Shown here: piece after piece, positions 5,805-57,884 of the stretch
Position numbering within the stretch: the first letter of the stretch is position 1
Layout: each line of letters begins with the position of its first letter
Assembly: GCA_964492965.1 (NCBI GenBank)
Contig: CAZBME010000001.1
Coordinates: 210,705-274,704, forward strand
DNA from: an uncultured Syntrophaceae bacterium
GTDB lineage: Bacteria > Desulfobacterota > Syntrophia > Syntrophales > UBA8958
DNA: 64,000 nt
Reading direction: 5' to 3'
Made by a program: the position numbers and the translations under genes
The notes under the pieces: generated by a model
What the model was told of the DNA's origin: nothing
The model's database searches: none
Seen by the model: only the letters and a program-made list of their open reading frames with translations

Positions 5805-6470
5805 TCAGCGCTTCAGATGGATCTCGTTTTTGTCGTAATCGATGGTCATCTTGAAATCGGAGAAAAAGCTCAATCCCAAAAGGCCGTCGTAATTGGGATG
5901 GTCATACATTTCGTCTATATAACTCGCCTGGACATATCTTTTCACGGCCCCGCCAAGATCAATTTTTTCAATAAATACCTCATGGGCTTCGACAACACCC
6001 GCTGCGGTTACAGCCTTCCCTTTTCTCGGATTGGCGGGTAAATTCTGGTTCAGCTTCTTCAACAGCTTCACATTGATTTTCACCGTCGTCGCCCCTGTAT
6101 CCACAATCATCCTGGCAGGCAGGTGATCATTTATGACCAGATCGACAAGCATGCCGCCATAGGCCCTTTTGAATGGGATAATAAACTCCCGCCCCCGTTC
6201 CTCCCCCGTGATATTTGGCGGTACAGAGGTACCTTCGCGCATCTTTGAAACTTTGACGTCCTTCCCTTTCGAACCGGATGACTGTGGCGGTTGATCTGAA
6301 TAATGGGCAACGCCGTCTTCATCGATCCAGCGATAGAGATCTGCGCCCATCGATAAATTTGGATCAATAAGGGCAGTGCATAGGATTCCTGCTGCAAGTA
6401 TGGTTCGATAAATTCCCGATTTGAAGAGAAGCATCAATTTGGCCTCCTGCCTAATCTTCTCAAGAAACAA
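5805..6470 (-). CDS. secreted retropepsin-like (clan AA) aspartic protease with an N-terminal DUF4124-like segment
   Basis: The protein has a signal/TM N-terminus, LYRWIDEDGVAHYSDQPP (DUF4124-like), and MIVDTGATTV (a D-T/S-G aspartyl protease signature). Confidence 0.75.
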   Translation of the reverse strand: MFLEKIRQEAKLMLLFKSGIYRTILAAGILCTALIDPNLSMGADLYRWIDEDGVAHYSDQPPQSSGSKGKDVKVSKMREGTSVPPNITGEERGREFIIPFKRAYGGMLVDLVINDHLPARMIVDTGATTVKINVKLLKKLNQNLPANPRKGKAVTAAGVVEAHEVFIEKIDLGGAVKRYVQASYIDEMYDHPNYDGLLGLSFFSDFKMTIDYDKNEIHLKR

Positions 6471-13810: not shown

Positions 13811-14977
13811 ATGCAAGAATTATCGTCAGGAAGTGAAGAATTCAGAGATGTGATCGGGAGTCATGAAATTCAATCGTTAATGGATTACTTTTACTCTCTT
13901 ACCCGAATAGGCATCGCCATTCTGGATCTTAAAGGAGAAATTCTGGTGCATACGGGGTGGCAGGATGTATGTGTCAAATTTCACAGGATGCATCCCACAA
14001 CGCAAAACAACTGCATCGAGAGTGACACCTATCTGTCGCAAAATGTTCGCCCCGGAGAATATCTGGTTTACAAGTGCAAAAACAACATGTGGGATATGGT
14101 AACCCCCATTTACGTCGGAGACAGGCATTTGGGAAATCTGTTTCTTGGCCAGTTTTTCTTCGAAGATGAAGTCGCCGATTACGATGTTTTCATCAAGCAG
14201 GCCGAAACCTATGGCTTTGATAAAGATGATTATCTTGATGCCCTCGAACGGGTGCCGAGATGGAGCCGATCAAAAGTAGAAGCCATCATGAATTTTTATA
14301 CGGGATTTGCATCCCTGATCTCACGACTCAGCTACAGTAACCTGGAACTGGCAAGATCTCTGAAAGACCTCAATCGTGCCGATGCTGCCCTGAGAGAGGC
14401 GCAAAATCATCTGGAGAAGCTTGTTGAGATCAGGACGGTAGAGCTGTTGCGGGAACAGGAACAACTGAAGGCCGAAATCGAAACGCATAAGAAGACCCAG
14501 AAGGCGCTAAACAGCCAGAAGCAGAAGCTGTCCAGCGAGCAAAAACACCTGCAAGAGGCCAATACGGCGCTGAAGGTCCTTTTGAAGCACAGGGAAGAGG
14601 ATCGCAAGGAAATCGAGAAAAAGGTGTTGTCCAACATCAGCAAGCTGGTCCTGCCGTATGTGGATAAGTTGCAGAACTCCGGACTGAAGGCCGGGCAGTC
14701 GGGCTACCTCGATGTCATGCGGGCTAACCTCAATGACATCATTTCCCCCCTCCTGCAAAGCCTGTCGGCTCAATATATGAATTTCACGCCCCGGGAGATT
14801 GAAATAGCCAATCTCGTCCATGGTGGGCGAACAGCCAAGGATATTGCCGGAATCCTTAATATTTCCGCCCGATCCGTTGAATTTCACAAAGACAACATCC
14901 GCAAGAAATTGGGATTAACCAACAAGCGCGTCAATCTCCATTCCCATCTGATGTCATTGACGCGATTCTCGGAATAA
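13811..14977 (+). CDS. transcriptional regulator: PocR-type sensory domain, long coiled coil and LuxR/GerE HTH
   Basis: The N-terminus (SLMDYFYSLTRIGIAILDLKGEILVHTGWQDVCVKFHRMHPTTQNNCIESD) resembles the PocR ligand-binding domain. The middle is a heptad-rich Q/K/E segment. The C-terminus FTPREIEIANLVHGGRTAKDIAGILNISARSVEFHKDNIRKKLGL is a LuxR-type HTH. Confidence 0.8.
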   Translation: MQELSSGSEEFRDVIGSHEIQSLMDYFYSLTRIGIAILDLKGEILVHTGWQDVCVKFHRMHPTTQNNCIESDTYLSQNVRPGEYLVYKCKNNMWDMVTPIYVGDRHLGNLFLGQFFFEDEVADYDVFIKQAETYGFDKDDYLDALERVPRWSRSKVEAIMNFYTGFASLISRLSYSNLELARSLKDLNRADAALREAQNHLEKLVEIRTVELLREQEQLKAEIETHKKTQKALNSQKQKLSSEQKHLQEANTALKVLLKHREEDRKEIEKKVLSNISKLVLPYVDKLQNSGLKAGQSGYLDVMRANLNDIISPLLQSLSAQYMNFTPREIEIANLVHGGRTAKDIAGILNISARSVEFHKDNIRKKLGLTNKRVNLHSHLMSLTRFSE

Positions 14978-14982
14978 ATGAC

Positions 14983-15032
14983 AAAGGCCCTGTAGCTGTC
15001 AATCAATTGACAGATCAGGGCCTTTGCTTTTT
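14983..15032 (+). terminator. terminator hairpin between convergent genes
   Basis: AAAGGCCCTG...(inner CTGTCAAT/ATTGACAG stem)...CAGGGCCTTT is followed by GCTTTTT. Confidence 0.75.
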
Positions 15033-15067
15033 CAGCGTGGCGGTTACGCGTTTACGATACCGACAGC

Positions 15068-15562
15068 CTAAAATTTTCCATCATAGGTGACAGACACGCT
15101 AACCATGCCGCGGCTACCGCCACAGTTGTAGGCTTCACCAATCTGGGTTCGTGTTTCAATCTTGTTTGTTTTTGAGTCCTTCCATCGGTATTCCGACGGG
15201 CTGTTATCACCTTTTTTTCGCTTTTCCATGGCCAGCTTGATAAACGGTTTGCCGTCGACATCTTTCAAGTCCATGTGGTTCTGGCCGACAAGAAACGGAT
15301 ATTTGCTATTGGCCAGGGTAATGCCGTTCCAATCGCCGATCGCGGGATAGGCATTCGCATATATTTTGAACTGCCCCTTGGGGTTGTTGATTTCTGCGAT
15401 GGCTTTGTCACACCCGACGTCCTTTGTGTAGGCAACAACCTTTTTCAGCAATTCCTTGGCCTGGGCAGGCGTGGCCATTTTATCCTGGGCTTGAACAAAC
15501 CCGGGAATCATTAACAAGGCGATTAAAGCAATGGCAACACAGCTTGATTTCGTTTTCATCAT
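15068..15562 (-). CDS. secreted stand-alone single-Cache (sCache_2-like) domain protein, paralog 2
   Basis: A signal peptide ends in VQAQD. The pattern AKELLKKVVAYTKDVGCDKAIAEINNPKGQFKI...YPFLVGQNHMDLKDVDGKPFI...EYRWKD...KIETRTQIGE is typical of Cache_2 sensor domains. No TM or output domain is present. Confidence 0.75.
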   Translation of the reverse strand: MMKTKSSCVAIALIALLMIPGFVQAQDKMATPAQAKELLKKVVAYTKDVGCDKAIAEINNPKGQFKIYANAYPAIGDWNGITLANSKYPFLVGQNHMDLKDVDGKPFIKLAMEKRKKGDNSPSEYRWKDSKTNKIETRTQIGEAYNCGGSRGMVSVSVTYDGKF

Positions 15563-15583
15563 CTGTACCTCCTGATCCGAGGT

Positions 15584-16072
15584 TTATAATTTTCCTTCAT
15601 AGGTAATCGTAAAATTGACCTTGCCCTTGGGACCGCAATCCGTGGACTCGCCGATCAGCGTCCTGGTTTCAATCTTTTTCGTAACATTATCCAGCCATCT
15701 ATATTCCATCGGCGCACAGCCTGTTTTGCATTTTTCAACGGCGTTTTTGATGAAGGGTTTGCCATCTGCATCCTTCAAATCAATATGATTCTGACCGACC
15801 AGGAAAGGATATTTGGCATTGGCCAGCGTGATACCGCTCGACTCACCGGCTGTCGGATAGGCATTCTTGTAAATTTTGAACATGGTCCCTTTGTTTATTT
15901 CCGCAAACGCCTTGTCGCAGCCCGCTTCCTTTGCATAGGCCACTACTTTCTTCAATAATTCCTTCGCCTGGGCCGGCGTGGCCATTTTATCCTGGGCACA
16001 GGCTACGCCTGCCAGAAACATCACGGTCATTGCTACGGCTATACTCAACACAAACCAACTCTTTCCTTTCAT
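15584..16072 (-). CDS. secreted stand-alone single-Cache (sCache_2-like) domain protein, paralog 1
   Basis: By eye it is about two-thirds identical to the downstream paralog. It has a signal peptide ending ACAQD and the same Cache_2 pattern. Confidence 0.75.
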   Translation of the reverse strand: MKGKSWFVLSIAVAMTVMFLAGVACAQDKMATPAQAKELLKKVVAYAKEAGCDKAFAEINKGTMFKIYKNAYPTAGESSGITLANAKYPFLVGQNHIDLKDADGKPFIKNAVEKCKTGCAPMEYRWLDNVTKKIETRTLIGESTDCGPKGKVNFTITYEGKL

Positions 16073-16102
16073 TTTGAACCTCCCTATATATTATTATGGA
16101 TT

Positions 16103-17695
16103 TCACTCTTCTTCAAAGGGAATTAAAGCCGCCGGCTTTTTCCCTTGAGATTTCTTTCCTGCAAACCGGGATGCGCGGGCGCTTCCAGTGAATCTTTCGC
16201 GCCCCTCCCCTTCCCCTCTGCTTTCCGTCTTGAAGATGGACATGACATTCGATAAATTTTCGGCATTGCCCGCTGTCTGCTGGGTGGTATTGCTCATCTC
16301 GGCGATGGCGCTGTTCACCTGGTCAATCCCCTGAGCTTGCTCCTCTGATGCCGCGGCGATCTCGCTCATGAGTTCGACGACCTTGCCCGAACTGGCCGTC
16401 ACCTGCGAAAAGGCCGTGCTTGTGTTATTGACCAGGCTTTCACCATTGCGCACCTTCGTGACAATGTCGCCAATGAGATTAGACGAGCCCCTTGCCGATT
16501 CCGTGGCCCGCATGGCCAGATTCCGAACCTCATCGGCGACAACAGCAAACCCGGCGCCGGCTTCCCCAGCCCGGGCGGCCTCCACCGAGGCATTCAGGGC
16601 CAGCAGATTCGTCTGAAAGGCTATCTCATCAATGCTCTTGACAATCTTCTGGGTCTGTTCACTGGCCTGGGTAATTTCCTTCATCGACGACATCAAACCG
16701 GCCATAGATTCGTTGGCCTTTTGGATGGCATTCTGCGCCGATATCATCAGTTGATTAGCTTCTTGCGTGCTGGATGCATTCTGGCGGGTCATGGATGCAA
16801 TTTCGTCCAGAGAGGCCGATGTTTCCTCGATAGCAGCCGCCTCCTGGGTGGCCGAGTCGGATAGTATTTCCGATATGGCAAGGGCCTGGCCGACAGCGTC
16901 ATTCATCTTTCCCCGCATGGTGTTGACGGATTGGGCAAGCATACCGATTTCATCATTTTGCTCAATGTCAATACTGCGGGTAAGATCTCCTTCCGCCAGA
17001 TGACTCAGAATTGCCGTTGTCTCATGGACGGGCTTCAAAACCATTCGCGTCACGAGGATGCTGACCACAAAAGAAAGAAGAACGGCAATGACGACAACCG
17101 CCAAAAAGACCATGACGGTATAGTTGAAGGTCGCAACCGCCGTTTCATATTTTTCCTTGCTAAGCTTGTCTTCGAAGGCCAGCAGGCTCGACAGGAACTG
17201 GTTTAAGGCCTGATATTTATCATCCGTCATGGACATGAGCTGAATAGCCATGTCCGGATTCATGGCGGCGGCATCGAAAACGCCCAGGACGCCTTTCTGA
17301 TATTCGACCATATTATCAAGGGCCGACTGGAAGTTTTTTTTCTCTTCCGAGGTCAGCAGACCTGAGGCCAAAAGCTTTTTGATCATTTCGACATCGGCAT
17401 TCAATATATCCTTCAGCTGCTGAGAGGCATCGGCAATTTTCTTGGCATCCAGGTTTAATTTCATCCAGTTAAGAATTCGGGAAAGATTCCCATGAACGGT
17501 GGACATGTCGTTAAGGATCTTGGCGCTGTTCTGGTACTGTTTAAACCGATTGTTATAGATGTCGTCGATGGCATCCTTCTGAAGGGAAAGGCTGAAGTAC
17601 GTTCCGCATGCCAGGAGAATAAGGAAGATGAGGACAACAATGGGTGCCAGGAGCATCTTCTTGGCCAATTTCAAATTATTAAAGAAATCTCTCAT
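16103..17695 (-). CDS. methyl-accepting chemotaxis protein (two TM segments, helical periplasmic domain, HAMP, MA domain)
   Basis: TM1 is followed by an approximately 170-aa periplasmic region, TM2 and HAMP ([26 protein letters not shown]). The conserved signalling hairpin reads [38 protein letters not shown]. Confidence 0.93.
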
Positions 17696-17830
17696 ATTTA
17701 TGTCCTCTTCAATAAAAAATGTTGAGATTGTTTAAGACACCTTTAAACGTAAATAAATCTTGGATCCAGACAGGCGATCCAAAATCGACATAGCTGACGC
17801 GATAACAAGCCATCGATTTGTACTCTAACA

Positions 17831-17846
17831 GCAAAGACGGTGCCAG
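17831..17846 (-). promoter_or_regulatory. sigma-54 (-24/-12) promoter of the MCP/Cache operon
   Basis: The minus strand reads CTGGCAC-CGTCT-TTGCT, an exact TGGCAC-N5-TTGC with canonical GG-to-GC spacing. It lies about 135 nt upstream of the MCP start. Confidence 0.8.
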
Positions 17847-18166
17847 CTATGGAAAGCATCTGTCAGTAAAAGGCCTTTTCAGGGCACGGTCGGGGGATTT
17901 TACGCCATGATTTTGACAGGATGGCATTGGTTCCCCTTTATGGCATTATTCTGGTTGAATGCGTTAGACCCAAAGAGAAAGGCACCGATTTAACAGATAG
18001 GCCTGACTTGCATGGTAAATTATTTGACATGAGAGGCGGGGCTATCGTCAATTACTTGACATCGCCTTTACAGTTTCAACGAAAAGGGTCTTCAACGGGC
18101 GTAGCCCAGCCCTCCTGAACGGGTTGAGTGAAAGGTAGGATCAGCCATGGGAAAGCATGGGGAAAG

Positions 18167-18209
18167 CCGTCCTACCTCCCTGCTCAGGACGGGCAGGGAG
18201 GTAGGACGG
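18167..18209 (-). terminator. strong GC-rich hairpin immediately after the carboxylesterase gene (terminator-like, weak U-tract)
   Basis: CCGTCCTACCTCCCTGC-(9 nt)-GCAGGGAGGTAGGACGG forms a perfect 17-bp stem starting 15 nt past the stop codon. Confidence 0.6.
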
Positions 18210-18223
18210 TAAAAGGAAAATTG

Positions 18224-20011
18224 TTACCGAACAGACGGCCGATAACGGGAATTATCCCAAAAGGGCTGGATTTCCTTCACCCGGGGCTCCGCCTGCAAGG
18301 CTTTAAGAATATGGTCTTCCGTCAATTCTTTCCTGGAAATCTCGATTTTGAGGGTATTGGAATCTGCGTCGAGGAGAATGGTTTTCGGATATCCTTCGAT
18401 ATTGGACCAGGGTTTCCAGCCGGGCAATCCGGAACCCTCCCGGTTGGGACTGCCTGAACGGGCAAATTGAGCCCAATAGTCCATCATCGCATTCGACAGG
18501 GCAACCCGGCCGGGGCTGTTCTTGTCGTTGAAGACCAGCCCTCCGAGAGAAGCTTTTCCCGTTCCGAAGACAAAATCGATTTCCATGGCATGACAGGCGC
18601 CCAACAGGACATTAAAAGGAGGGGCAAGGACGCTCTTTTTCGCGCTGCCTGCCCCCCACAGGAACTGATAGGCATAAATCATAGGTTGATCGGCATTGGA
18701 TCTCAAGATTCCTGCCAACTGGTCGACACCCATGACCTTCCACCCATCGCTTTGATACTGGGCGGCAAGATCGTATAACTCTGCTTTGGCTGGATCTTTG
18801 AAAAGCGATCCGTCGGTTCTCCAGGATGCGAAGAGAGGGTCGTTACGCAGGAAAAGCTTTGCCTCTTCCTTGTTCGTTCCCAGAATGACAGGAACCCTAT
18901 TATACGCCCCCGCTTTCATGGCTTCGTAAAAATCAACAGGCAGAACCTTGCCATCGCTGAAGCTGTTCGGAAACCTGAACATCCCGATCACCGGTCCCTC
19001 GGCATAGAGGGCCAGCAATTCCCGGGCGTGCTTCGCTCTCAGATAATCAGCAACATCTTTACCTGACATTTTCTTCAGTTTGGCCTCAGCCGACTTTTCA
19101 TCGGATGCCATCCCGTCTTTCACGAAAAGTTTCAAAATTAAGCCATTCGCGTGTTGCGCCCCCTGATGAGGCGTCGACATTCGGATAACTCCGCTCTGGG
19201 AAATAGCCTTATGGAAGAGATTCCGGGAGAGAGGCGAGGCCATGAGAGAAATGACATTCTGCGCTCCGGCCGATTCCCCGACGATGGTTACATTTGCAGG
19301 ATCGCCGCCGAAGTTCTTGATGTTGGCCTTCACCCAGGACAAAGCCTGAATCAGATCCAAAAGGGCAAAATTACCTGAATCGCCGTTCTCATCTCCCTTC
19401 ATGCCATTGCGGAGGGAGGGATGACTGAGAAACCCCAATGGTCCCAGACGATAATTGACCGTCACCACAATCATGTTTTGCTTCCCCGCCAGGATGGCGC
19501 CATCCGTGTTGGAAAGCAGGGGCCATTGAATACTGTTTCCGCCACCGTGAATCCAGAAGAAGACGGGCAAATCCACGGCATCCGTTTTAGGACGCCAAAT
19601 ATTCAAATAAAGGCAGTCTTCATTGCCCTGAATCACCTGAGGCGTTGCGGGATTTCGGTCATGATCAATATACTGGGGGCATATCTCGCAAAAACCGGCC
19701 GCTTTAAAAGGAGCAGACCGTTTGTCGGGCGGCTGGGGGGCTCTCCAGCGCAGGTCGCCGACAGGCGCCTTGGCAAAGGGAATCCCTTTCCAGGAAAGGG
19801 TATGGGTTGCACTTTGCTCCTCACCTACAACATCGCCTTCCGTGGTCTGACGCACCGCAAGCAGTGACTCGGCGGCTTTTGTCTTTTCCTGGGCCCAAAC
19901 ATCCGTACCGTGAAAAGCTGCGATGTTGGGCAAAAGCACAAGCACAACCAAAACCAACCATAGAATCTTTTTCACCTGACGCATCTCATTGTATTTCTCT
20001 TTTTTCCTCAT
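18224..20011 (-). CDS. secreted type-B carboxylesterase/lipase (cholinesterase-like alpha/beta hydrolase)
   Basis: An N-terminal signal/TM segment is followed by the oxyanion region FWIHGGGNSIQ, the nucleophile elbow GESAGA, and a family-typical N-terminus (WKGIPFAKAPVGDLRW). Confidence 0.88.
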   Translation of the reverse strand: MRKKEKYNEMRQVKKILWLVLVVLVLLPNIAAFHGTDVWAQEKTKAAESLLAVRQTTEGDVVGEEQSATHTLSWKGIPFAKAPVGDLRWRAPQPPDKRSAPFKAAGFCEICPQYIDHDRNPATPQVIQGNEDCLYLNIWRPKTDAVDLPVFFWIHGGGNSIQWPLLSNTDGAILAGKQNMIVVTVNYRLGPLGFLSHPSLRNGMKGDENGDSGNFALLDLIQALSWVKANIKNFGGDPANVTIVGESAGAQNVISLMASPLSRNLFHKAISQSGVIRMSTPHQGAQHANGLILKLFVKDGMASDEKSAEAKLKKMSGKDVADYLRAKHARELLALYAEGPVIGMFRFPNSFSDGKVLPVDFYEAMKAGAYNRVPVILGTNKEEAKLFLRNDPLFASWRTDGSLFKDPAKAELYDLAAQYQSDGWKVMGVDQLAGILRSNADQPMIYAYQFLWGAGSAKKSVLAPPFNVLLGACHAMEIDFVFGTGKASLGGLVFNDKNSPGRVALSNAMMDYWAQFARSGSPNREGSGLPGWKPWSNIEGYPKTILLDADSNTLKIEISRKELTEDHILKALQAEPRVKEIQPFWDNSRYRPSVR

Positions 20012-20140: not shown

Positions 20141-21052
20141 TTAATGGCCGACAACTGCGTTTACCCCCAGACCTTCAACAATGCCTTTTAATAACTGCAA
20201 TCGATCATCATCAGGCGCCTTGGCATCGGGCAGAAGATCGGGCCGTCCCAATTGTTTGTTTTTTGATCTTCCTCCTTCGTGATAGGGAAGGAAGGAAATC
20301 CTTTGTACTCCCAGATCCTTCCCGAAAAAGGCAATTTTCTTGATATGATCTTCAGAATCATTGAGCCCGGCAATAAGGGGAATACGAAGCCAAACGGGGG
20401 TTTTTTGCGCGGCCCTTTTCAGGTTACTCAAAATGACATCATGCCTCACGCCGGTGGTTCTTTCATGTTCGCCTGCATCAAGGTGCTTCAGATCGAAAAG
20501 GAGCAGATCAACCCAGGGCAGGAGGGCCTCCAGCGCCTTCCAAGAACCGTAACCGGATGTATCGAGAGCCGTGTACAATCCCTCATTTTTGCACTGCACC
20601 AACAGGTTACGGACAAACCGGCCCTGAGACAATGCCTCCCCTCCGGATATCGTCACACCGCCACCGGAGTTTTTATAAAAGATCCGGTCCTTAAGAACCT
20701 CCTCCAAAACCTCGGCAAGTGTCATCCCCTTCCCGCAGACGATCAGCGAACCATAGAGACAGGCGGGAACGCAGAGCATACAAAGATTGCATCGGCTGCG
20801 ATCGATGATTCGCCCTTTATCTCTTGAGAGGGTAATGGCCTTGTTGAGACAAGCGGCGACACAGGCACCGCAACCACTGCATAGGACATCCCTTGCCAAC
20901 AGGTCCGGGGAAAACCCCTGCGATTCGGGATTGGAACACCACAAACAACGCAGAGGACAACCTTTCATAAACACGGTGGTCCGAATCCCCGGCCCGTCGT
21001 GGACGCTGAAACGCTGAATATTGAAGATGAGGCCTGAGGCTTCGTCGTTCAT
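20141..21052 (-). CDS. glycyl-radical enzyme activating enzyme (radical SAM with a ferredoxin-like insert)
   Basis: The radical-SAM cluster motif is FSVHDGPGIRTTVFMKGCPLRCLWCSNPE (CX3CX2C). Two extra Cys clusters (CSGCGACVAAC and CNLCMLCVPAC) are typical of PFL2-class activases. Its start lies 4 nt from the GRE stop. Confidence 0.93.
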   Translation of the reverse strand: MNDEASGLIFNIQRFSVHDGPGIRTTVFMKGCPLRCLWCSNPESQGFSPDLLARDVLCSGCGACVAACLNKAITLSRDKGRIIDRSRCNLCMLCVPACLYGSLIVCGKGMTLAEVLEEVLKDRIFYKNSGGGVTISGGEALSQGRFVRNLLVQCKNEGLYTALDTSGYGSWKALEALLPWVDLLLFDLKHLDAGEHERTTGVRHDVILSNLKRAAQKTPVWLRIPLIAGLNDSEDHIKKIAFFGKDLGVQRISFLPYHEGGRSKNKQLGRPDLLPDAKAPDDDRLQLLKGIVEGLGVNAVVGH

Positions 21053-21055
21053 AGA

Positions 21056-23455
21056 TTATGTAAGGCTCTGCTCCGTTCTGGCGATAATATGGTCCTGGAG
21101 GCCCCGGGATAGATCGACGAAATAGGCGCTGAACCCGGCAACACGAACGATCATCTCGGCATACTTCTCTGGGTAGGTCTGGGCGGCGACCAAGGCCTTT
21201 TTATCGACAACATTGAACTGGATGTGGGGAACATTCAATTCCTTCCAGGATTTGAGGTAACCGATAAACGCCGGCCGAAAATCCGGTTCCAGGAACTTGG
21301 GAAGAAACTTCTGGTTCAGGAGGTGGTTATAAGTCTCCAGAGCCGTGATCTTAGCGCAGGATTTGAGGACTGCCGTGGGCCCTTTTTTATCCATCCCCGG
21401 TGAGGGCGCCAGGGTCGAGTCGGCAAAGGGCTCTCCATCCATACGGCCGTCCGGCGTGGCCGGGGTGTCGATGGCCAGTCCGTAAGTGGCGGAAACGGCG
21501 CTCCCGTCGCCCCGATTGGAAAAGCCATAGCGGTCTTTCACCGTTTCCATGACCGCCTCGCCCAAACGGTGGACTTCCTTGGCGACAAGATCGGCATAAT
21601 CGTCGTCGTTACCGAATTTTGGGGCGTTCAGACAGGCCCGGCGGATATCCTCCCGGCCTTCCCAGTTATTATCCATGATCCGGATCAATTCGGGAAGGGT
21701 AACCAGACCATCGTCGAAGACAACCTTCCGGAGCGCCGTTATGGCGTCGGCCACATTGGTCCCGCCGATGACCTGGGCAAAATGATGGATCATGGAGGGA
21801 TAGACCCACTTTCGGGCCTCTTGCCCCTTTTCGATACAACCTTCGACGACGGCGGAGTAAAAAGGCCGTGGGCAGTACTTGGCATACAACTCCAGGTTGA
21901 TCCTCTCCAATTGTTCAATCTTGTTTGTGAAGAATTGAACCTGCTCCAGATAGGACTGAAGGACATCCTCCCATGATTTGAATGTCGCCGGATCGGGTGT
22001 TCTGGCCCCCCGCTGTTCTCCCGTCTTGGGATTGACACCCTGATGGAGAGCCCACCAGAGGCATTTCGGGAGGACAAAATAACCTACGGAACGACGCATC
22101 ATATTTTTCCCGGGGATTTCGATATAGACACAGCCTGTGACGGCATAATCTTTCGCATCTTCCGGTGGCACCCCCCAACGATCCAGAAGGGGAAGGAGGG
22201 CTTCATCATTGAAGAGGGAGGGATAGCCCACGCCGGTTTTGATGACATCGGCAGCCTTCTCATAGACGCCCTCAGGCGTTCCCTCATGGATTCGCAAGCA
22301 GATGCTGGGTTCAATGAGCTGCAACTGTTTGGCTGCCTCCAGGGCGAGGTAGGTGAGATCGTTCGTCACGTCCCGACCATCTTTGTCAGTACCCCCGATG
22401 GTGACCGCCTGCAGGGAAGCCACACCGCCATAGACGGAACTCACCGTCGGCGAATAGACCAGCCCGAGTTCGTTGAGCTTGATCCAGAGGAGTTGGAGGA
22501 TGTCCAGGGCTTCTTCTTTTGTGATCCGCCCTTCTGCCAGATCCTTTTCATAATAGGGTCCGAAGATATGGTCGATACGGATGCCGACGCCTAATGTCGA
22601 GTATTCGAGATAGCGAATCAAGTGTATGAAAAAGAAAAACTGCACCGCTTCGGCGAAAGTCCTTGGCGGATTTTCGGGAACCCAGGCGCAGATACGGGCA
22701 ATCTCTTCCAATTCCGCGATTCTCGCCGGACGGGTTTCTTGTTTGGCTAGATTTCGGGCCAGTTCGGCGTAACGCCCGGCAAAACGGATGACTGCCTCCA
22801 GGGCGATGATCATGGCGTCGTAAAATTCCCGCTGTTCCACATAGTCGATGGGGATGGTCCCGTCGATCTCCTGAAGCCTCGCACGGACGGACTGAATCCG
22901 GCCCTTTAAACCTGTTTGAAAGAGGGTCTCGTAATCGGGGATGCCCAGTTCGGAGAGTTGGCTCCACAGATAGGTGCCTTCATAGGTCCAATAGGGCGAG
23001 AGGTCTTGCGGGAGGATCTCCTGGTGACGGTCGCTCATGGACTTCCCCTTCCAGTAGGCACAAAGTTCATCCAGTTCTCTGCGGCCGTCCTCATCCAGAA
23101 GCGTCTTCCCCGCCTCGCTGTTCACCAGCCTCAAAACCGATTTCCAGTTTTGATCAATGGGATGATAAATGCCGTTGGGATCAGATGTTTGATACCCCAC
23201 AATCCGCTCATGATCCCGGATAAAAATATCCATCTTATCCAAGAGATTGGCCAGGGCCTTGGCCCTGCGGACGACCATGGACTGTCCGTCCGTTTCCTTG
23301 AACGATTCCGTCATCAACCGGGACCGCTGCAAATCCAGCCTGATTTCCGACCGGTACATTCCCCGTTTCGACTCATCATCGGCGTAGCCCCGCTTGATAT
23401 TGCGAACAGCCTTGCTGATGACCTTTTTTCTTAGCCCTTCGGCTTTTGCTGTCAT
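21056..23455 (-). CDS. glycyl radical enzyme (PFL2 / dehydratase-like class by length and C-terminus); substrate unknown
   Basis: The 799-aa protein has the C-terminal glycyl-radical fingerprint MIVRVAGFSAYFVDL (Gly774 codon at 21134-21136). The Cys loop AVTGCVYIEIPG has its Cys442 codon at 22130-22132. No small-subunit genes are adjacent. Confidence 0.92.
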   Translation of the reverse strand: MTAKAEGLRKKVISKAVRNIKRGYADDESKRGMYRSEIRLDLQRSRLMTESFKETDGQSMVVRRAKALANLLDKMDIFIRDHERIVGYQTSDPNGIYHPIDQNWKSVLRLVNSEAGKTLLDEDGRRELDELCAYWKGKSMSDRHQEILPQDLSPYWTYEGTYLWSQLSELGIPDYETLFQTGLKGRIQSVRARLQEIDGTIPIDYVEQREFYDAMIIALEAVIRFAGRYAELARNLAKQETRPARIAELEEIARICAWVPENPPRTFAEAVQFFFFIHLIRYLEYSTLGVGIRIDHIFGPYYEKDLAEGRITKEEALDILQLLWIKLNELGLVYSPTVSSVYGGVASLQAVTIGGTDKDGRDVTNDLTYLALEAAKQLQLIEPSICLRIHEGTPEGVYEKAADVIKTGVGYPSLFNDEALLPLLDRWGVPPEDAKDYAVTGCVYIEIPGKNMMRRSVGYFVLPKCLWWALHQGVNPKTGEQRGARTPDPATFKSWEDVLQSYLEQVQFFTNKIEQLERINLELYAKYCPRPFYSAVVEGCIEKGQEARKWVYPSMIHHFAQVIGGTNVADAITALRKVVFDDGLVTLPELIRIMDNNWEGREDIRRACLNAPKFGNDDDYADLVAKEVHRLGEAVMETVKDRYGFSNRGDGSAVSATYGLAIDTPATPDGRMDGEPFADSTLAPSPGMDKKGPTAVLKSCAKITALETYNHLLNQKFLPKFLEPDFRPAFIGYLKSWKELNVPHIQFNVVDKKALVAAQTYPEKYAEMIVRVAGFSAYFVDLSRGLQDHIIARTEQSLT

Positions 23456-30722: not shown

Positions 30723-30895
30723 GGACACTGGCAGATCCGCCATCTCATGCTGAAGAACTTTTTCACTTGCTTTATCACATATTTTATGTTCCAGAGGCGT
30801 TCCACGATACATTCCATTGTGGAACATAATAGAAACTATTTTGAAACACTATGCTTATGTATAGCACCGAGAATAGATGGAAAGGAGAAAGCGGG

Positions 30896-32941
30896 ATGGC
30901 CGTTCAAAAACCCGGGACCAAGCATCCGTCACCGAATGAGCCGATCAAATTGGATGCAGTCTATGAGGATCGTTATAAGAGAACCTATCTGGAATGGAAA
31001 AAATATATCAAAGGGGCCGATCATGTCGATCCCGCTATCGTCCCCGAAGAGGTTCTGGAATCCTGGCATCGTTGCCGCCTGCTGAACGTCGATCCCCTGG
31101 GCAAACCAAACCATAAAATACTGACCGGAAATAACCTTCAGAAATTACTGTCAGACAACAAAGAATTTATCTCCATCAGCAATCCTTTCCTGGTCAATCT
31201 TTATCGATTCGTGAAAGGGTCCCGATTTGTCGTCGGCCTTTTCGATCGTGAGGGATACGTGCTTGATATCATGCAGGACAATGATGAGGCGATAGAGGAA
31301 AACCTCAACATGCAATGGCTACCGGGCGTTCGTTGGGATGAGAAATGCGCCGGAAACAACGCCGCCGGAACGGTCCTCGCATCAAAAAAGCCTATCCGGA
31401 TCTTCGGGACCCAGCACTACAACAAGACCTTCCACAAATTGACGGTTTCCAGCGCCCCCATTTTCAATCCCGAAGGCGAACTGATAGGCGGCATTACCCT
31501 GTCAGCCTTTTATTACGGCACAAACCCCCATACCCTGGGCATGGCCGTTGCCGCGGCTCAAGCCATTGAAAACGAGCTTCGGGCACAGAAAGCCCTGACT
31601 GAATGCAAAGCCGCCTTTGCAGAAACTGAAATAGCCTACAGTTTGCAGAAAACCGTCATTGAGTCCATCCCGGAGGCGCTGGTTGCCATAAACGGCAAGG
31701 GATATATCTCTATTATTAACGACAAGGCCCGGGACAAGTTTTACCTCAAGGACCGGAACATCGAGGGGAAGCATATACGAAACATCAGCGGAGAGATCAA
31801 TCACCGGTTCCTCAGTATGATCGAAACGGATGAACCCTTCACGGATGCCGAGGTCAGAATCTTTCATAAAAATGGCTACAACGATTACACACTCACCTGC
31901 AATCCCATACGAACGCCCACGGGAAAGATCATGGGCAAAATTCTAATCTTCTCCGAAATCAAACGGATCAAAACCCTGGTCACCAGAATGATCGGCGCCA
32001 AGGCAAACATACGCTTCGAGGATATCTGCGGCCGTAACCCCCGGTTCCAGATGACCCTGGAACAGGCGCGCCTGATCTCTCAAAGCAGCTCCAATGCCCT
32101 TCTTTTGGGTGAAAGCGGCACGGGAAAAGACATCTTTGCCCAGGCCATTCATAACGCCAGCCAACGCAAAGACGGTCCTTACGTGGCCATCAATTGTGCG
32201 GCAATTCCGCGGGATCTCATTACCAGCGAACTTTTTGGGTATTCCGAGGGGGCCTTCACAGGATCACGGCGCGGCGGCAATCAGGGCAAATTCGAGCTGG
32301 CCGACGGCGGCACTATCTTTCTCGATGAAATCGCCGAGACGCCTCTTGAATTGCAGGCAGTCCTCCTTCGCGTCATAGAGGATAAATCCATCATCCGCAT
32401 CGGAGGAAGCAGGGTCCGGCCGGTAGATACAAGGATCATCGCCGCAACGAACAAAGACCTTCTCGAAGAGGTCCGCAAAGGCAACTTCAGGAAAGATCTA
32501 TACTACCGCCTGAATGTTTTCACGATCCATATGCTGCCCCTGACGGAGAGGCTTGACGATATTCCCCTTCTGGTGGATGTTTTTATGAAGAAATACGGCA
32601 AAACCTTAGGAAAGAATATTAGCCCCCTTGATGAAAAGATCATGGAGGCTTTCATGCGATATTCATGGCCCGGCAATGTCCGGGAGCTGCAAAATGTGAT
32701 TGAAAGAATGATGAATTATGCCCGCTCAGATGAGTTGACCACCGATCTCATCCCGTCGGAAATCCTCAATACCCGTCATGCCACCGGTTCGGACATGGAG
32801 ATGGAGTCGCCCGGGGATACGGAACGAAAGTTAATCAGTCGCATGCTGAGCCTGAAGTTCCGTAAAAAACAGATCGCCGAGCGAATGAATATTTCCCGTA
32901 CAACACTTTTCCGCAAGATGAAGGAATATAGGCTGTCGTGA
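30896..32941 (+). CDS. sigma-54-dependent transcriptional activator, AcoR-like (N-terminal GAF-like sensor, PAS, AAA+, Fis HTH)
   Basis: The AcoR-type N-terminus contains VLESWHRCRLLNVDP. AAA+ motifs are GESGTGKD, ELFGYSEGAFTGS and RVIEDKSIIRIGG. The C-terminal HTH reads IAERMNISRTTLFRKMKEY. I place the start at the ATG at 30896, 8 nt after AAAGGAG. Confidence 0.9.
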   Translation: MAVQKPGTKHPSPNEPIKLDAVYEDRYKRTYLEWKKYIKGADHVDPAIVPEEVLESWHRCRLLNVDPLGKPNHKILTGNNLQKLLSDNKEFISISNPFLVNLYRFVKGSRFVVGLFDREGYVLDIMQDNDEAIEENLNMQWLPGVRWDEKCAGNNAAGTVLASKKPIRIFGTQHYNKTFHKLTVSSAPIFNPEGELIGGITLSAFYYGTNPHTLGMAVAAAQAIENELRAQKALTECKAAFAETEIAYSLQKTVIESIPEALVAINGKGYISIINDKARDKFYLKDRNIEGKHIRNISGEINHRFLSMIETDEPFTDAEVRIFHKNGYNDYTLTCNPIRTPTGKIMGKILIFSEIKRIKTLVTRMIGAKANIRFEDICGRNPRFQMTLEQARLISQSSSNALLLGESGTGKDIFAQAIHNASQRKDGPYVAINCAAIPRDLITSELFGYSEGAFTGSRRGGNQGKFELADGGTIFLDEIAETPLELQAVLLRVIEDKSIIRIGGSRVRPVDTRIIAATNKDLLEEVRKGNFRKDLYYRLNVFTIHMLPLTERLDDIPLLVDVFMKKYGKTLGKNISPLDEKIMEAFMRYSWPGNVRELQNVIERMMNYARSDELTTDLIPSEILNTRHATGSDMEMESPGDTERKLISRMLSLKFRKKQIAERMNISRTTLFRKMKEYRLS

Positions 32942-52131: not shown

Positions 52132-52147
52132 TACAATTGTTGTGCCA
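52132..52147 (-). promoter_or_regulatory. sigma-54-type promoter with a non-canonical -12 (thiolase-ACAD-abfD operon)
   Basis: The minus strand reads TTGGCAC-AACAA-TTGTA. The -24 is perfect and the register correct, but the -12 is TTGT rather than TTGC. It lies about 125 nt upstream of the thiolase start and shares its form with the site at 55470-55483. Confidence 0.55.
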
Positions 52148-55280: not shown

Positions 55281-55469
55281 CTCTTTACTTCCTCCTCTCT
55301 CAGTCTGCTTTTTGAGCTTTCCCCCCTCTTTTGCTGAAGGAAAGGATGAAACTAAACCAGATACGTTAATGTTTTATGCCGGCAACTTGAACTGATACCT
55401 GCTCGATCACCTCCCTCTCATGATTTTGATATAAATCTAACGATCCCCGCTTATATGTTTATTTTCGTT

Positions 55470-55483
55470 CAATTGTCGTGCCA
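55470..55483 (-). promoter_or_regulatory. sigma-54-type promoter with a non-canonical -12 (SBP / acyl-CoA synthetase operon)
   Basis: The minus strand reads GTGGCAC-GACAA-TTGAA. It has the same TGGCAC-RACAA-TTGW form and register as 52132-52147, and lies about 190 nt upstream of the SBP start. Confidence 0.5.
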
Positions 55484-55688: not shown

Positions 55689-57884
55689 TCAAACAACATC
55701 AGCCTTGATTTTGTGCTTCGAGGCTTTCCGAATGAAGGTCGGTTGGCTGATGCCGATTGCGGCGGCGGCTTTTCTCGTTGTGCCGAAGCGGATCAGGGCA
55801 TTGCGGATCATCTCTTTTTCGAGTTCCGCCACAGCCGCTCCCAATTTAAATCCGGACAACGCTTTCACCCCTTCATCGGGCTTCCTGGCATCTTCCGATT
55901 GATGGCCCGGCAAATCGATATTGCTGATGATATCCTCGGGACAGGTGATCATGTTTCTTTCAATCACATTCTGTAATTCCCGGACGTTACCGGGCCAATC
56001 GTAAGACATGAGCAGGTTGATGGCCCTCTCGTCAAAGCGTTTGTTGATCTTATATTTTTTATTGTACAATGTTGTAAAATGGGTGACAAAATTGGGGACT
56101 TCCTCTCTGCGGTCCCGCAAGGGAGGAATATTGACCGGCACGACATTCAGCCTGTAAAAAAGGTCCTGCCTGAATTCATTTTTGGCCGCCATGTCTGCCA
56201 GATTCTTGTTTGAAGCGGCAATGATGCGGACATCGACCTTGAGCGGCTTGTTCCCGCCCAACCGGGTGATCACTTTCTGCTGAATGGTCCGCAATAGTTT
56301 CGATTGCAGATGGAGGGGCATTTCACCGATTTCATCGAGGAAGATCGTCCCGCCGTTGGCCAGCTCAAAAATGCCGGCCCTCCCTTTTTTATGGGCTCCC
56401 GTAAAGGCCCCCGCTTCGTACCCGAACAACTCCGATTCCAGTAAATTATCGGGGATGGCGGCGCAATTGATGGGGATCATGGGTTTATCACGTCTCAGGC
56501 TGTTTTCGTGGAGCATTTCCGCCACAATTTCCTTGCCGACTCCCGATTCACCGAGAATGAGAATCGTCGTATCCACTTTGCTAAGACGCATGACCAATTC
56601 GACGAGCTCTTTGGATTTCTTTGATTTAGCAATATATTTGCCGGATATCTTAATCCTGTTGAGTTGCTCCTTGTAATGATCGCTCAGGCTCTCCGCCTTC
56701 TCCAGTTGATTCTTCAACTCATTGAGTTCCGTAATATCCCTGGCGTTATGAACGACGCGGAAAACATTGCCGCTGCCGTCCATAATGGGATTGCTGGTCA
56801 CGAGGATTGTTTTCCCCGATCGAACTTCCTGGGCAATGGTGACGGGCTTCCCCTCCAGCATCGCCTGGAGGGGGATGCTCTGCTTAAATATCCCTCGGAC
56901 CACTAGGTCTTCCATTTTATAGCCCAGAAGCTCATTCTTCTGAATTCCCGTGATGCGGGTGAAGGCGTCATTGACACGCAGAACCCGACCCTGATTGTCA
57001 GTCAGATAGATGCCGTCAAACGACGATTCGATGATTGTGACCAGTTCTTCTTTCAATTCTTTGGTGGTGGTCAATTCCTCCGAGATGTGCTCAAGGTCGG
57101 AGATATCCTGAAAAACAGCCACGGCGCCGATGATTTTATCCTTATGCCTCAGGGGACTTTTATTGGTGACGAGAATTTTATCCTTAAAAATCAATTTCTG
57201 GCCGAAATCGGATCTGCCCGTATGGACGATATCATCCAGCTTGGCATCGGGCAGAATATCAGACAGCAATCGATTGAGGGCCGCTTTGCGTGCAATGGAT
57301 AATATCTTTTCCGCCGCATCATTCATGAGCTTGATGTGACCATTTAAATCTATGGTGATAATGCCGTTATAGGCGGAATTGATAACGGTGTGCAGTTCTT
57401 CCTCAAAGTTCAGGATGGAGCTGAAGTACGCCCGGATCGTATCCGAAAGGGTAACAATGCCCACGACACGACCGTCTTCGACGACAGGCAGGCTCCCGAC
57501 ATTGATGGTTATCAGCTTCGAGATATCTTCGTTAGGCTTCGTCACCAGGGGATCCGTCTTCATGATATCCCCGATATTCTTCTCGATATCCCCGCTATGA
57601 TTGATTTCCCGCAAGGCCATGGTTTTGGTGATCAGACCGACGATTTTCCCCTCGTCGCTTACAATCGGGACACCGTCAATCTTATTCTCAATGATAATCC
57701 TGATGGCGTCTTTTAATGTCGCGTCGCTCTTCAGGACCAGGGGATGCGGACGCATGAAATCACTGACCTTGGCGTTCATATTCAGGCCATCCGTTTCCCT
57801 CAACAATTGCTGTACTTCGTTGAGCAACGGATCCTCATCCGGATAATTCGTCACAACGGCACCTCCCGTACGATGATGCTTCAC
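55689..57884 (-). CDS. sigma-54-dependent transcriptional activator with a CBS pair, two PAS domains, AAA+ and Fis HTH
   Basis: The N-terminal CBS repeats read VSDFMRPHPLVLKSDATLKDAIRIIIENKIDGVPIV... and IGDIMKTDPLV...LPVVEDGRVVGIVT. AAA+ motifs are GESGVGKE and ESELFGYEAGAFTGA. The HTH reads RKAAAAIGISQPTFIRKASKH. The true start may be an internal Met, for example near 57779. Confidence 0.9.
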   Translation of the reverse strand: MKHHRTGGAVVTNYPDEDPLLNEVQQLLRETDGLNMNAKVSDFMRPHPLVLKSDATLKDAIRIIIENKIDGVPIVSDEGKIVGLITKTMALREINHSGDIEKNIGDIMKTDPLVTKPNEDISKLITINVGSLPVVEDGRVVGIVTLSDTIRAYFSSILNFEEELHTVINSAYNGIITIDLNGHIKLMNDAAEKILSIARKAALNRLLSDILPDAKLDDIVHTGRSDFGQKLIFKDKILVTNKSPLRHKDKIIGAVAVFQDISDLEHISEELTTTKELKEELVTIIESSFDGIYLTDNQGRVLRVNDAFTRITGIQKNELLGYKMEDLVVRGIFKQSIPLQAMLEGKPVTIAQEVRSGKTILVTSNPIMDGSGNVFRVVHNARDITELNELKNQLEKAESLSDHYKEQLNRIKISGKYIAKSKKSKELVELVMRLSKVDTTILILGESGVGKEIVAEMLHENSLRRDKPMIPINCAAIPDNLLESELFGYEAGAFTGAHKKGRAGIFELANGGTIFLDEIGEMPLHLQSKLLRTIQQKVITRLGGNKPLKVDVRIIAASNKNLADMAAKNEFRQDLFYRLNVVPVNIPPLRDRREEVPNFVTHFTTLYNKKYKINKRFDERAINLLMSYDWPGNVRELQNVIERNMITCPEDIISNIDLPGHQSEDARKPDEGVKALSGFKLGAAVAELEKEMIRNALIRFGTTRKAAAAIGISQPTFIRKASKHKIKADVV

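Follow-up and report, generated by a model that had tools for sequence, protein, structure and literature searches.

A 64,000-nucleotide stretch of DNA from an uncultured Syntrophaceae bacterium (assembly GCA_964492965.1, contig CAZBME010000001.1, positions 210,705 to 274,704 of the forward strand), referred to here as the window, carries a compact cluster of three minus-strand genes encoding one methyl-accepting chemotaxis protein (MCP) and two secreted, stand-alone sCache_2 proteins, designated CacheA and CacheB. The genes follow each other in the order MCP (17695-16103), CacheA (16072-15584) and CacheB (15562-15068), with intergenic gaps of 30 nt and 21 nt, respectively, and a GGAGG-type ribosome-binding site precedes each of them. 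MCP and CacheA share one reading frame. A first-pass annotation, made from the letters of the sequence, had described this order, these gaps and two paralogous proteins of ∼160 residues; the open reading frame (ORF) coordinates confirm all of these, with products of 162 and 164 residues. The features of the locus, in window coordinates, are the following:

14981 to 15027, no strand assigned: strong hairpin terminator that separates CacheB from a convergent PocR-LuxR regulator gene
15068 to 15562, minus strand: CacheB, secreted stand-alone sCache_2 protein of 164 residues (Pfam sCache_2, 37.8 bits; AlphaFold2 model; Foldseek)
15584 to 16072, minus strand: CacheA, secreted stand-alone sCache_2 protein of 162 residues (Pfam sCache_2, 32.7 bits)
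16103 to 17695, minus strand: MCP of 530 residues (Pfam; orthologues at 47-73% identity beside Cache genes in 8 Syntrophales loci)
17831 to 17845, minus strand: sigma-54 type -24/-12 motif TGGCAC-N5-TTGC (TGGCACCGTCTTTGC), an exact match 150-136 nt upstream of the MCP start codon
18012 to 18030 and 18044 to 18062, no strand assigned: two 19-nt direct repeats, 32 nt apart, a candidate activator-binding site
18167 to 18209, minus strand: perfect 17-nt inverted repeat just past the upstream carboxylesterase gene, a likely terminator
18246 to 18223: additional terminator-like site found by a simple scan

Downstream of CacheB, the RNA fold of 14975-15070 has a dG of -41.1 kcal/mol (z = -5.4), and none of 200 shuffled sequences folds as well. 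The inner stem of this hairpin is a perfect TGTCAATCAATTGACA palindrome (14997-15012) located 20 nt past the stop codon of the convergent regulator gene. On the opposite side, the inverted repeat at 18167-18209 is likely a terminator that isolates the MCP operon as a separate transcription unit. The geometry, with short gaps between the genes and hairpins on both sides, suggests that MCP, CacheA and CacheB are co-transcribed.

CacheA and CacheB are 64% identical, and each consists of a signal peptide and one Cache fold ending in a C-terminal beta-strand; neither has a transmembrane (TM) helix or an output domain. Sec-type cleavage sites can be read directly from the sequences (...VACA↓QDK and ...VQA↓QDK). 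Both proteins score above the curated Pfam gathering cutoff for sCache_2 (PF17200, 25 bits), which is the sole above-cutoff match and is accompanied by weaker Cache-family matches and, for CacheA, a sub-threshold PepSY_2 match. Neither protein matches a solute-binding protein (SBP) family or DUF3365 in Pfam. Structurally, the AlphaFold2 model of CacheB (mean predicted local distance difference test score 86.7, disorder confined to residues 1-25) shows one Cache fold of the PAS-like alpha/beta kind, led by a long N-terminal helix. Each of the top 11 Foldseek matches of CacheB in the PDB is an sCache_2 ligand-binding domain (E 1e-7 to 3e-5), the best being 4exo/2qhk, TlpB (3ub6-9), PscD (5g4y) and Adeh_3718 (4k08). 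The description of each protein as a signal peptide joined to a single Cache_2-like fold, which the first-pass annotation had proposed, is thus supported by the Pfam domain check. What the two proteins lack are the hallmarks of a canonical extracytoplasmic Cache sensor, namely flanking TM helices and a fused MCP, histidine kinase or GGDEF output.

Other identities are rejected for these proteins. The locus is not a split pseudogene of an ordinary Cache-containing MCP, as the MCP has a complete TM1-4HB-TM2 unit (4HB, four-helix bundle) and each Cache gene comes with a ribosome-binding site and a signal peptide of its own. A heme-binding Cache is ruled out by the lack of CXXCH in both CacheA and CacheB, and a lipoprotein by the lack of a conserved lipobox, the family consensus being AQA↓Q. 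Because CacheA and CacheB are sister sequences in a neighbor-joining tree, the tandem duplication is a local, lineage-specific event.

The MCP has a conventional layout of TM1, a periplasmic four-helix bundle (∼residues 37-190), TM2, HAMP and an MCP signaling domain, its TM segments having been identified by reading the sequence directly. In Pfam, 4HB_MCP_1 covers residues 7-189 (38.5 bits against a cutoff of 27; 1.2e-9), HAMP residues 214-264 (1.1e-11) and MCPsignal residues 319-470 (3.7e-41). The three domains in this order, together with two TM helices, define a 4HB-sensor MCP, and the 4HB_MCP_1 match bears out the helical, 4HB-like periplasmic domain assigned beforehand.

The association of the two gene types extends well beyond the window. 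Close CacheB homologues are few, all of ∼162-168 residues, and among genomes they occur only in metagenome-assembled genomes of Smithella/Syntrophales. In each of the eight Syntrophales/Smithella loci with upstream DNA, the Cache gene comes directly after the end of an orthologous MCP gene (47-73% identity). Most Syntrophales loci carry a single Cache copy, and one of them (L010) has a second, divergent Cache. Distant free Cache proteins (38-42% identity) likewise adjoin 4HB-HAMP-MCP genes, and they do so in both gene orders: Cache then 4HB-MCP (P0019), Cache then 4HB-MCP with CheY/CheA genes further downstream (P0023), and 4HB-MCP then Cache (P0026).

Genomic neighborhood analysis of the P0023 subfamily covered the best 80 of 530 metagenomic relatives, with neighboring ORFs scored by a hidden Markov model (HMM) of the partner MCPs; the locus scan used a 12-sequence subfamily alignment (A3), a 73-sequence alignment of small Cache proteins (A2) being too diverse. 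A same-strand MCP lies downstream in 55 of the 80 loci, starting within ∼240 nt except in L088 (∼600 nt), and directly upstream in 3 more; 5 loci are undecidable and 17 were scored negative. Inspection of the negatives adds L029 (start-codon artifact) and L066 (tandem Cache pair before the MCP) as well as L053 and L058 (downstream ORF with a 4HB sensor). An immediate MCP neighbor is therefore present in 58-62 of the 75 decidable loci (58 as scored, ∼62 after inspection), a very large excess, because MCP genes make up ∼1% or less of a typical genome. The MCP is the sole recurrent neighbor of the free Cache genes, and no transporter gene recurs. In L066 (4001-6789), the order CheA, Cache, Cache, MCP places a tandem Cache pair beside an MCP in an unrelated metagenomic lineage.

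The partner receptors are also of a consistent type. Among ten partner MCPs scanned, eight contain 4HB_MCP_1, one contains a helical bimodular (HBM) domain and none contains a Cache domain of its own. Alignment of the partners reveals one 4HB subtype, whose helix 1 carries the conserved motif DI[FY]NNRF..YQ.SA...VH.N and which is common to the window MCP, its Syntrophales orthologues and many distant partners despite clearly different lengths of their cytoplasmic signaling domains. Since this 4HB subtype accompanies the free Cache across differing signaling-domain lengths, the periplasmic bundle and the free Cache behave as a co-inherited module. Conserved synteny of MCP and free Cache had been set beforehand as a test of a functional link between them, and the proposed link passes it in 8/8 Syntrophales loci and again in distant subfamilies. 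The genetic coupling of free Cache and MCP is strong and general, the pair being found in dozens of environmental bacteria that are unrelated.

The binding pocket was mapped by HMM alignment to PscD, with residues taken from the PscD structure paper (PMC5062169), according to which sCache_2 domains that bind C2/C3 carboxylates use a hydrogen-bond triad of Tyr90, His103 and Lys156 together with Tyr143, Trp92 and Trp145. The equivalents of Tyr90, Tyr143 and Trp145 in the window proteins are Y72, Y125 and W127, which are invariant across the close family. The Trp92 position is occupied by Ala74 in the window proteins (HMM alignment) and by a small residue throughout the close family, in which the His103 position is Asn or Gln; the complete residue set of the PscD/McpP/Adeh_3718 type is thus lacking in the window proteins. 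The distant P0023 subfamily retains the equivalents of Tyr90, His103 and Tyr143, has Phe at the Trp145 position and, by extrapolation, keeps the Lys. Because the sCache_2 carboxylate motif is partly retained, a small carboxylate or a related polar metabolite is the best guess for the ligand, and only a guess. CacheA and CacheB carry the same residues at the mapped pocket positions, the polar ones included, which leaves the earlier suggestion of a duplication that broadens specificity unsupported.

A profile search of 1.84 billion representative sequences for relatives of the free Cache proteins matched 2425 representative clusters, 822 of them at E <1e-10. Stand-alone sCache_2 proteins are thus far from rare and make up a large, mostly output-less clade. 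Among the best 150 of the 2425 clusters, 80 are single-domain proteins of ∼150 residues, most with signal peptides, and 64 are larger, mostly with 2 to 13 tandem Cache repeats and no output domain. These best 150 are almost all output-less, and only one of them (P0098) has an MCP signature: it contains two TM helices, almost no periplasmic loop and an sCache_2 domain C-terminal to the signaling domain. Its Cache domain would be cytoplasmic, and the protein would represent a Rosetta-stone-like fusion of the MCP and Cache partners. Other members (P0046, P0055, P0082 and P0077) are Cache fusions to L-lactate permease (with two N-terminal Cache domains), SBP_bac_3 and a PLD-like domain, which hint at a monocarboxylate-binding, transporter-feeding role for some of the family. 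The free-Cache clade is, as judged from these architectures, an output-less, binding-protein-like branch of sCache_2 that is distinct from the receptor-embedded domains.

The most extended members are secreted poly-Cache proteins (P0037, P0043, P0045, P0059 and P0183), with 3 to 13 tandem sCache_2 repeats and lengths of up to 2099 residues. Pfam analysis of four of these five (P0043, P0045, P0059 and P0183) finds no recognizable output domain. CXXCH, sought in ∼100 small relatives, is present in none. Joint Genome Institute (JGI) records label P0003, P0011, P0019, P0020 and others 'cytochrome c' despite their lack of CXXCH; because of that lack, the label is probably an annotation carried over from the heme-binding Cache/DUF3365 family.

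We modestly favor the reading that the operon encodes a two-part, binding-protein-dependent chemoreceptor, composed of a 4HB MCP and two soluble periplasmic sCache_2 proteins. This split-receptor idea, put forward in the first-pass annotation, is partly supported. In this model, the PAS-like pocket of a free Cache protein would take up a small metabolite; the protein, once liganded, would dock on the 4HB domain of the MCP encoded beside it, and this receptor would pass the signal via HAMP to CheA. The MCP operon would form its own transcription unit, with receptor and co-receptors made only on the signal of an activator, via a probable sigma-54 promoter. Within this scheme, we infer ligand binding, docking, the direction of signaling and sigma-54 dependence. 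The fusions found in the wider family, namely two Cache domains with lactate permease, SBP_bac_3 with Cache, and an MCP with a C-terminal Cache, point to a binding-protein role.

Several observations weigh against a two-part receptor. Adjacency shows a functional link and not docking, and the 4HB domain could itself bind the ligand. The 80 surveyed loci were drawn from one subfamily as its best matches, and they lack phylogenetic independence. Furthermore, ∼10-15% of the decidable loci of this distant subfamily have no adjacent receptor, and one close homologue (P0007) has no MCP neighbor; the family therefore also has MCP-independent roles. In the pocket, the carboxylate-binding His is lost, the equivalent of His103 being Asn85 by HMM alignment, and the equivalent of Lys156, extrapolated past the aligned stretch, is Arg138. 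These His-to-Asn and Lys-to-Arg changes make the ligand class uncertain.

There are two other ways of reading the pairing. The MCP and the Cache proteins might be co-regulated and physically independent, the MCP sensing through its 4HB domain and the Cache proteins capturing, buffering or scavenging the same substrate; a shared physiological response would then be the sole reason for the gene linkage. Relatives in which Cache is joined to lactate permease or to an SBP domain, suggestive of transport-side binding, would fit this idea, as would the family members without a receptor neighbor and the many poly-Cache relatives (2-13 repeats), which are unlikely MCP co-receptors. It is nevertheless unlikely: the one recurrent gene beside the Cache genes is the MCP, with no recurrent transporter gene, the pairing holds in both gene orders and across MCP signaling-domain lengths, and the partner receptors consistently lack a Cache domain. 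Alternatively, the Cache proteins could be ligand-independent accessory or modulatory subunits of the MCP, acting as a stabilizer, a releasable inhibitor or a competitor that tunes sensitivity. This would account equally for the conserved adjacency and could draw on the incomplete carboxylate triad of the window proteins and on the two diverged copies, which could set the dose of a modulator. The invariance of the pocket Tyr, Tyr and Trp across the close family makes it improbable, and so does the full Tyr/His/Tyr/Lys carboxylate set retained in the distant subfamily, which is expected of a ligand-binding protein.

Expression of the proposed two-part receptor appears to be governed by a promoter specific to this lineage. 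The motif TGGCACCGTCTTTGC is the sole exact TGGCAC-N5-TTGC in the window and lies inside the 528-nt intergenic region in the correct orientation, with GG at -24 and GC at -12 at the required spacing (17845-17831, minus strand). The exact motif reported in the first-pass annotation is therefore present, although the end coordinate given there (17846) was one base too far. Four contigs recovered for this organism from other samples retain it. With ten fixed bases and both strands counted, an estimated ∼0.12 exact matches per window would arise by chance, falling to ∼0.01 when the right intergenic region and orientation are also demanded; one-mismatch matches are not enriched in the window. A simple scan of the operon strand from 14900 to 18300, intergenic region included, finds no sigma-70-like site. 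For sigma-28, the closest match within the intergenic region carries 5 mismatches.

Each of the 19-nt direct repeats holds a palindrome resembling TGTCAA-N4-TTGACA (18014-18029 and 18046-18061, both imperfect), which places them ∼170-215 nt upstream of the sigma-54 motif. Palindromes of this TGT-N10-ACA type are used by some enhancer-binding proteins (EBPs). The window contains 8 matches to TGTCAA-N4-TTGACA at ≤2 mismatches, where 2.3 are expected; no shuffled sequence out of 100 reaches 8. These palindromes flank the operon: the two imperfect copies lie upstream of the sigma-54 motif, and the single perfect one supplies the inner stem of the terminator downstream of CacheB. Either the PocR-LuxR regulator or an EBP could bind the palindrome. 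The orthologous loci, searched for it as a tie to a conserved EBP, do not contain it.

The orthologous loci present a different promoter type. None of the orthologous MCP genes has an exact sigma-54 motif upstream. Instead, four of five (L003, L004, L006 and L008) carry a sigma-28 (FliA)-like element, TAAAGTTw-N11/12-GyCGAtAt, with 1-4 mismatches, at -143 to -164 from the MCP ATG, the same distance as the sigma-54 motif in the window. Because the window motif occupies the position of these elements, sigma-54 in place of sigma-28 looks like a lineage-specific promoter replacement within the gene family. The earlier designation of a sigma-54-driven chemoreceptor operon is thus plausible at this locus, given the exact motif, and does not extend to the module as a whole, given the sigma-28-like elements of four of five orthologues.

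A real sigma-54 promoter before the MCP operon is likely, owing to the exact motif, the repeated palindromes upstream, the lack of a sigma-70 or sigma-28 match and the presence of four EBP genes in the window. That the motif is a chance match, the operon using an unrecognized sigma-70 or other promoter, is a doubtful alternative that concerns the promoter and leaves the gene pairing untouched. It takes its force from the missing motif upstream of every orthologous MCP gene and the sigma-28-like promoters of four of them, from the lack of an adjacent EBP gene, and from the ∼0.12 exact matches estimated per window together with the unenriched one-mismatch matches. Its appeal is reduced by the estimate of ∼0.01 for an exact match in the right intergenic region and orientation, by a motif-to-ATG distance equal to that of the orthologues' sigma-28 elements, by the failure to find a sigma-70-like site on the strand or a sigma-28-like match with fewer than 5 mismatches, by the two TGT-N10-ACA-type palindromes 170-215 nt upstream, and by the four EBP genes within the same 64 kb.

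A possible activator and the genes surrounding the operon are listed below:

beyond the hairpin at 14981 to 15027, convergent with CacheB: PocR-LuxR regulator gene (Pfam)
18224 to 20011: secreted carboxylesterase gene, which precedes the MCP operon
20141 to 23455, minus strand: glycyl-radical enzyme (PFL-like, 799 residues) and radical-SAM activase, just upstream of the esterase
30851 to 32941, plus strand: sigma-54 EBP of 696 residues (PAS, Sigma54_activat, HTH_8; Pfam), a weak candidate activator

The EBP at 30851-32941 is 51.5% identical over 664 residues to the EBP that lies directly upstream of the MCP-Cache unit in L010, and an EBP of the same architecture lies directly upstream of the unit in L006. 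The first-pass annotation was thus correct that no EBP adjoins the operon, but it missed this homologue of a unit-flanking EBP elsewhere in the window. The protein is a weak candidate for activating the MCP-operon promoter. In two Smithella/Syntrophaceae relatives, L010 (153-5289) and L006 (1921-5868), the MCP-Cache unit is preceded by this EBP gene, which lies beside genes for PETase-like hydrolases that have sigma-54-like motifs. The L010 intergenic region contains no GG-N10-GC. In L010, the intergenic stretch separating the MCP gene from the divergent Cache gene (5925-6342) holds two copies of the palindrome GCAGCTTGCTGC, a candidate operator. Elsewhere in the window, one-mismatch sigma-54-like motifs occur at 52133-52147 and 55469-55483 (both minus strand), upstream of minus-strand genes, and one of them adjoins an EBP gene; the region 55689-57884 (minus strand) is listed with these motifs.

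With PETase-like hydrolase genes before the unit in L010 and L006 and a carboxylesterase gene before it in the window, products of ester hydrolysis are possibly linked to the sensed ligand. Beyond the glycyl-radical enzyme genes, homology with contig L016 indicates a short-chain dehydrogenase gene.

The logic of a free Cache acting with a 4HB MCP would parallel SBP-dependent chemoreception, as in Tar-MBP. Reviewed examples are Tar-MBP, Trg-RbsB/MglB and Tap-DppA of E. coli, CtpL-PstS of P. aeruginosa and TlpB-AibA/AibB of H. pylori (PMC8050422). The proposal shares with these systems a soluble periplasmic binding protein that would hand the signal to an MCP's periplasmic domain, and 4HB or helical bimodular domains are likewise the receivers in the classical cases. 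Unlike the SBP systems, in which the free protein is two-lobed, the putatively docking protein here has a Cache (PAS-like) fold of ∼135 residues. In addition, its gene stands with that of the receptor instead of with an ABC transporter, and has no linked transporter.

The window proteins share Pfam family and fold with the sensors of PscD, McpP, Adeh_3718, V. parahaemolyticus 4EXO and TlpB. However, sCache_2 sensors of the PscD type lie between the two TM helices of their receptor and signal through the C-terminal helix, whereas the window proteins have neither TM helix nor output. The founding analysis of Cache domains held that an extracellular Cache can signal only via a C-terminal TM helix (PMC4822843). 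According to a 2026 preprint, >90% of Cache domains are fused to outputs, and stand-alone Cache has been described only for the heme-binding subfamily (PMC12889525). Like the window proteins, sCache_heme/DUF3365/Tll0287 proteins are secreted single-domain Cache proteins without an output (PMC12889525). They differ in having a CXXCH heme c motif in a helical insertion and in the redox roles assigned to them, whereas the window proteins contain no CXXCH.

Two-component arrangements of other kinds offer further comparisons. In LuxP-LuxQ, a co-encoded periplasmic binding protein regulates the periplasmic domain of a membrane receptor, as is proposed here, but the folds are reversed, the free protein being an SBP and the receptor domain Cache-like. 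In Campylobacter energy taxis, the PAS-only protein CetB and CetA, an MCP lacking that sensor, are co-encoded and form one bipartite receptor, CetB being cytoplasmic or membrane-associated and sensing redox state. The window differs from CetA/CetB in its secreted sensor proteins and in an MCP that brings a periplasmic bundle of its own. A full-text literature search returned no description of a pairing between free Cache and helical-bundle MCP, an absence that is not proof of novelty.

Extended to the family, secreted single-domain sCache_2 proteins may, tentatively, be widespread and undescribed periplasmic co-receptors through which helical-bundle (4HB/HBM) chemoreceptors receive their ligands. 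No ligand is known for the majority of bacterial chemoreceptors, and 4HB receptors are particularly difficult to pair with one. If the proposal is true, it would add a third input route for chemoreceptors besides direct binding and SBP-mediated sensing, would constitute an exception to extracellular Cache signaling solely via its own C-terminal transmembrane helix, and could account for those 4HB receptors that lack an identifiable direct ligand. If the free Cache proteins were the true ligand-binding subunits of a sizeable class of 4HB or HBM receptors, ligand screens on the receptor domain alone would fail for that class, and these small soluble proteins would then be easy targets for thermal-shift screening. 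A free Cache beside a helical-bundle receptor would serve as the genomic rule for recognizing such systems. The Cache superfamily would extend from built-in sensors to diffusible binding proteins, including poly-Cache and transporter-fused forms, and Smithella-like syntrophs would possess a regulated taxis response, perhaps tied to the neighboring esterase or glycyl-radical-enzyme metabolism.

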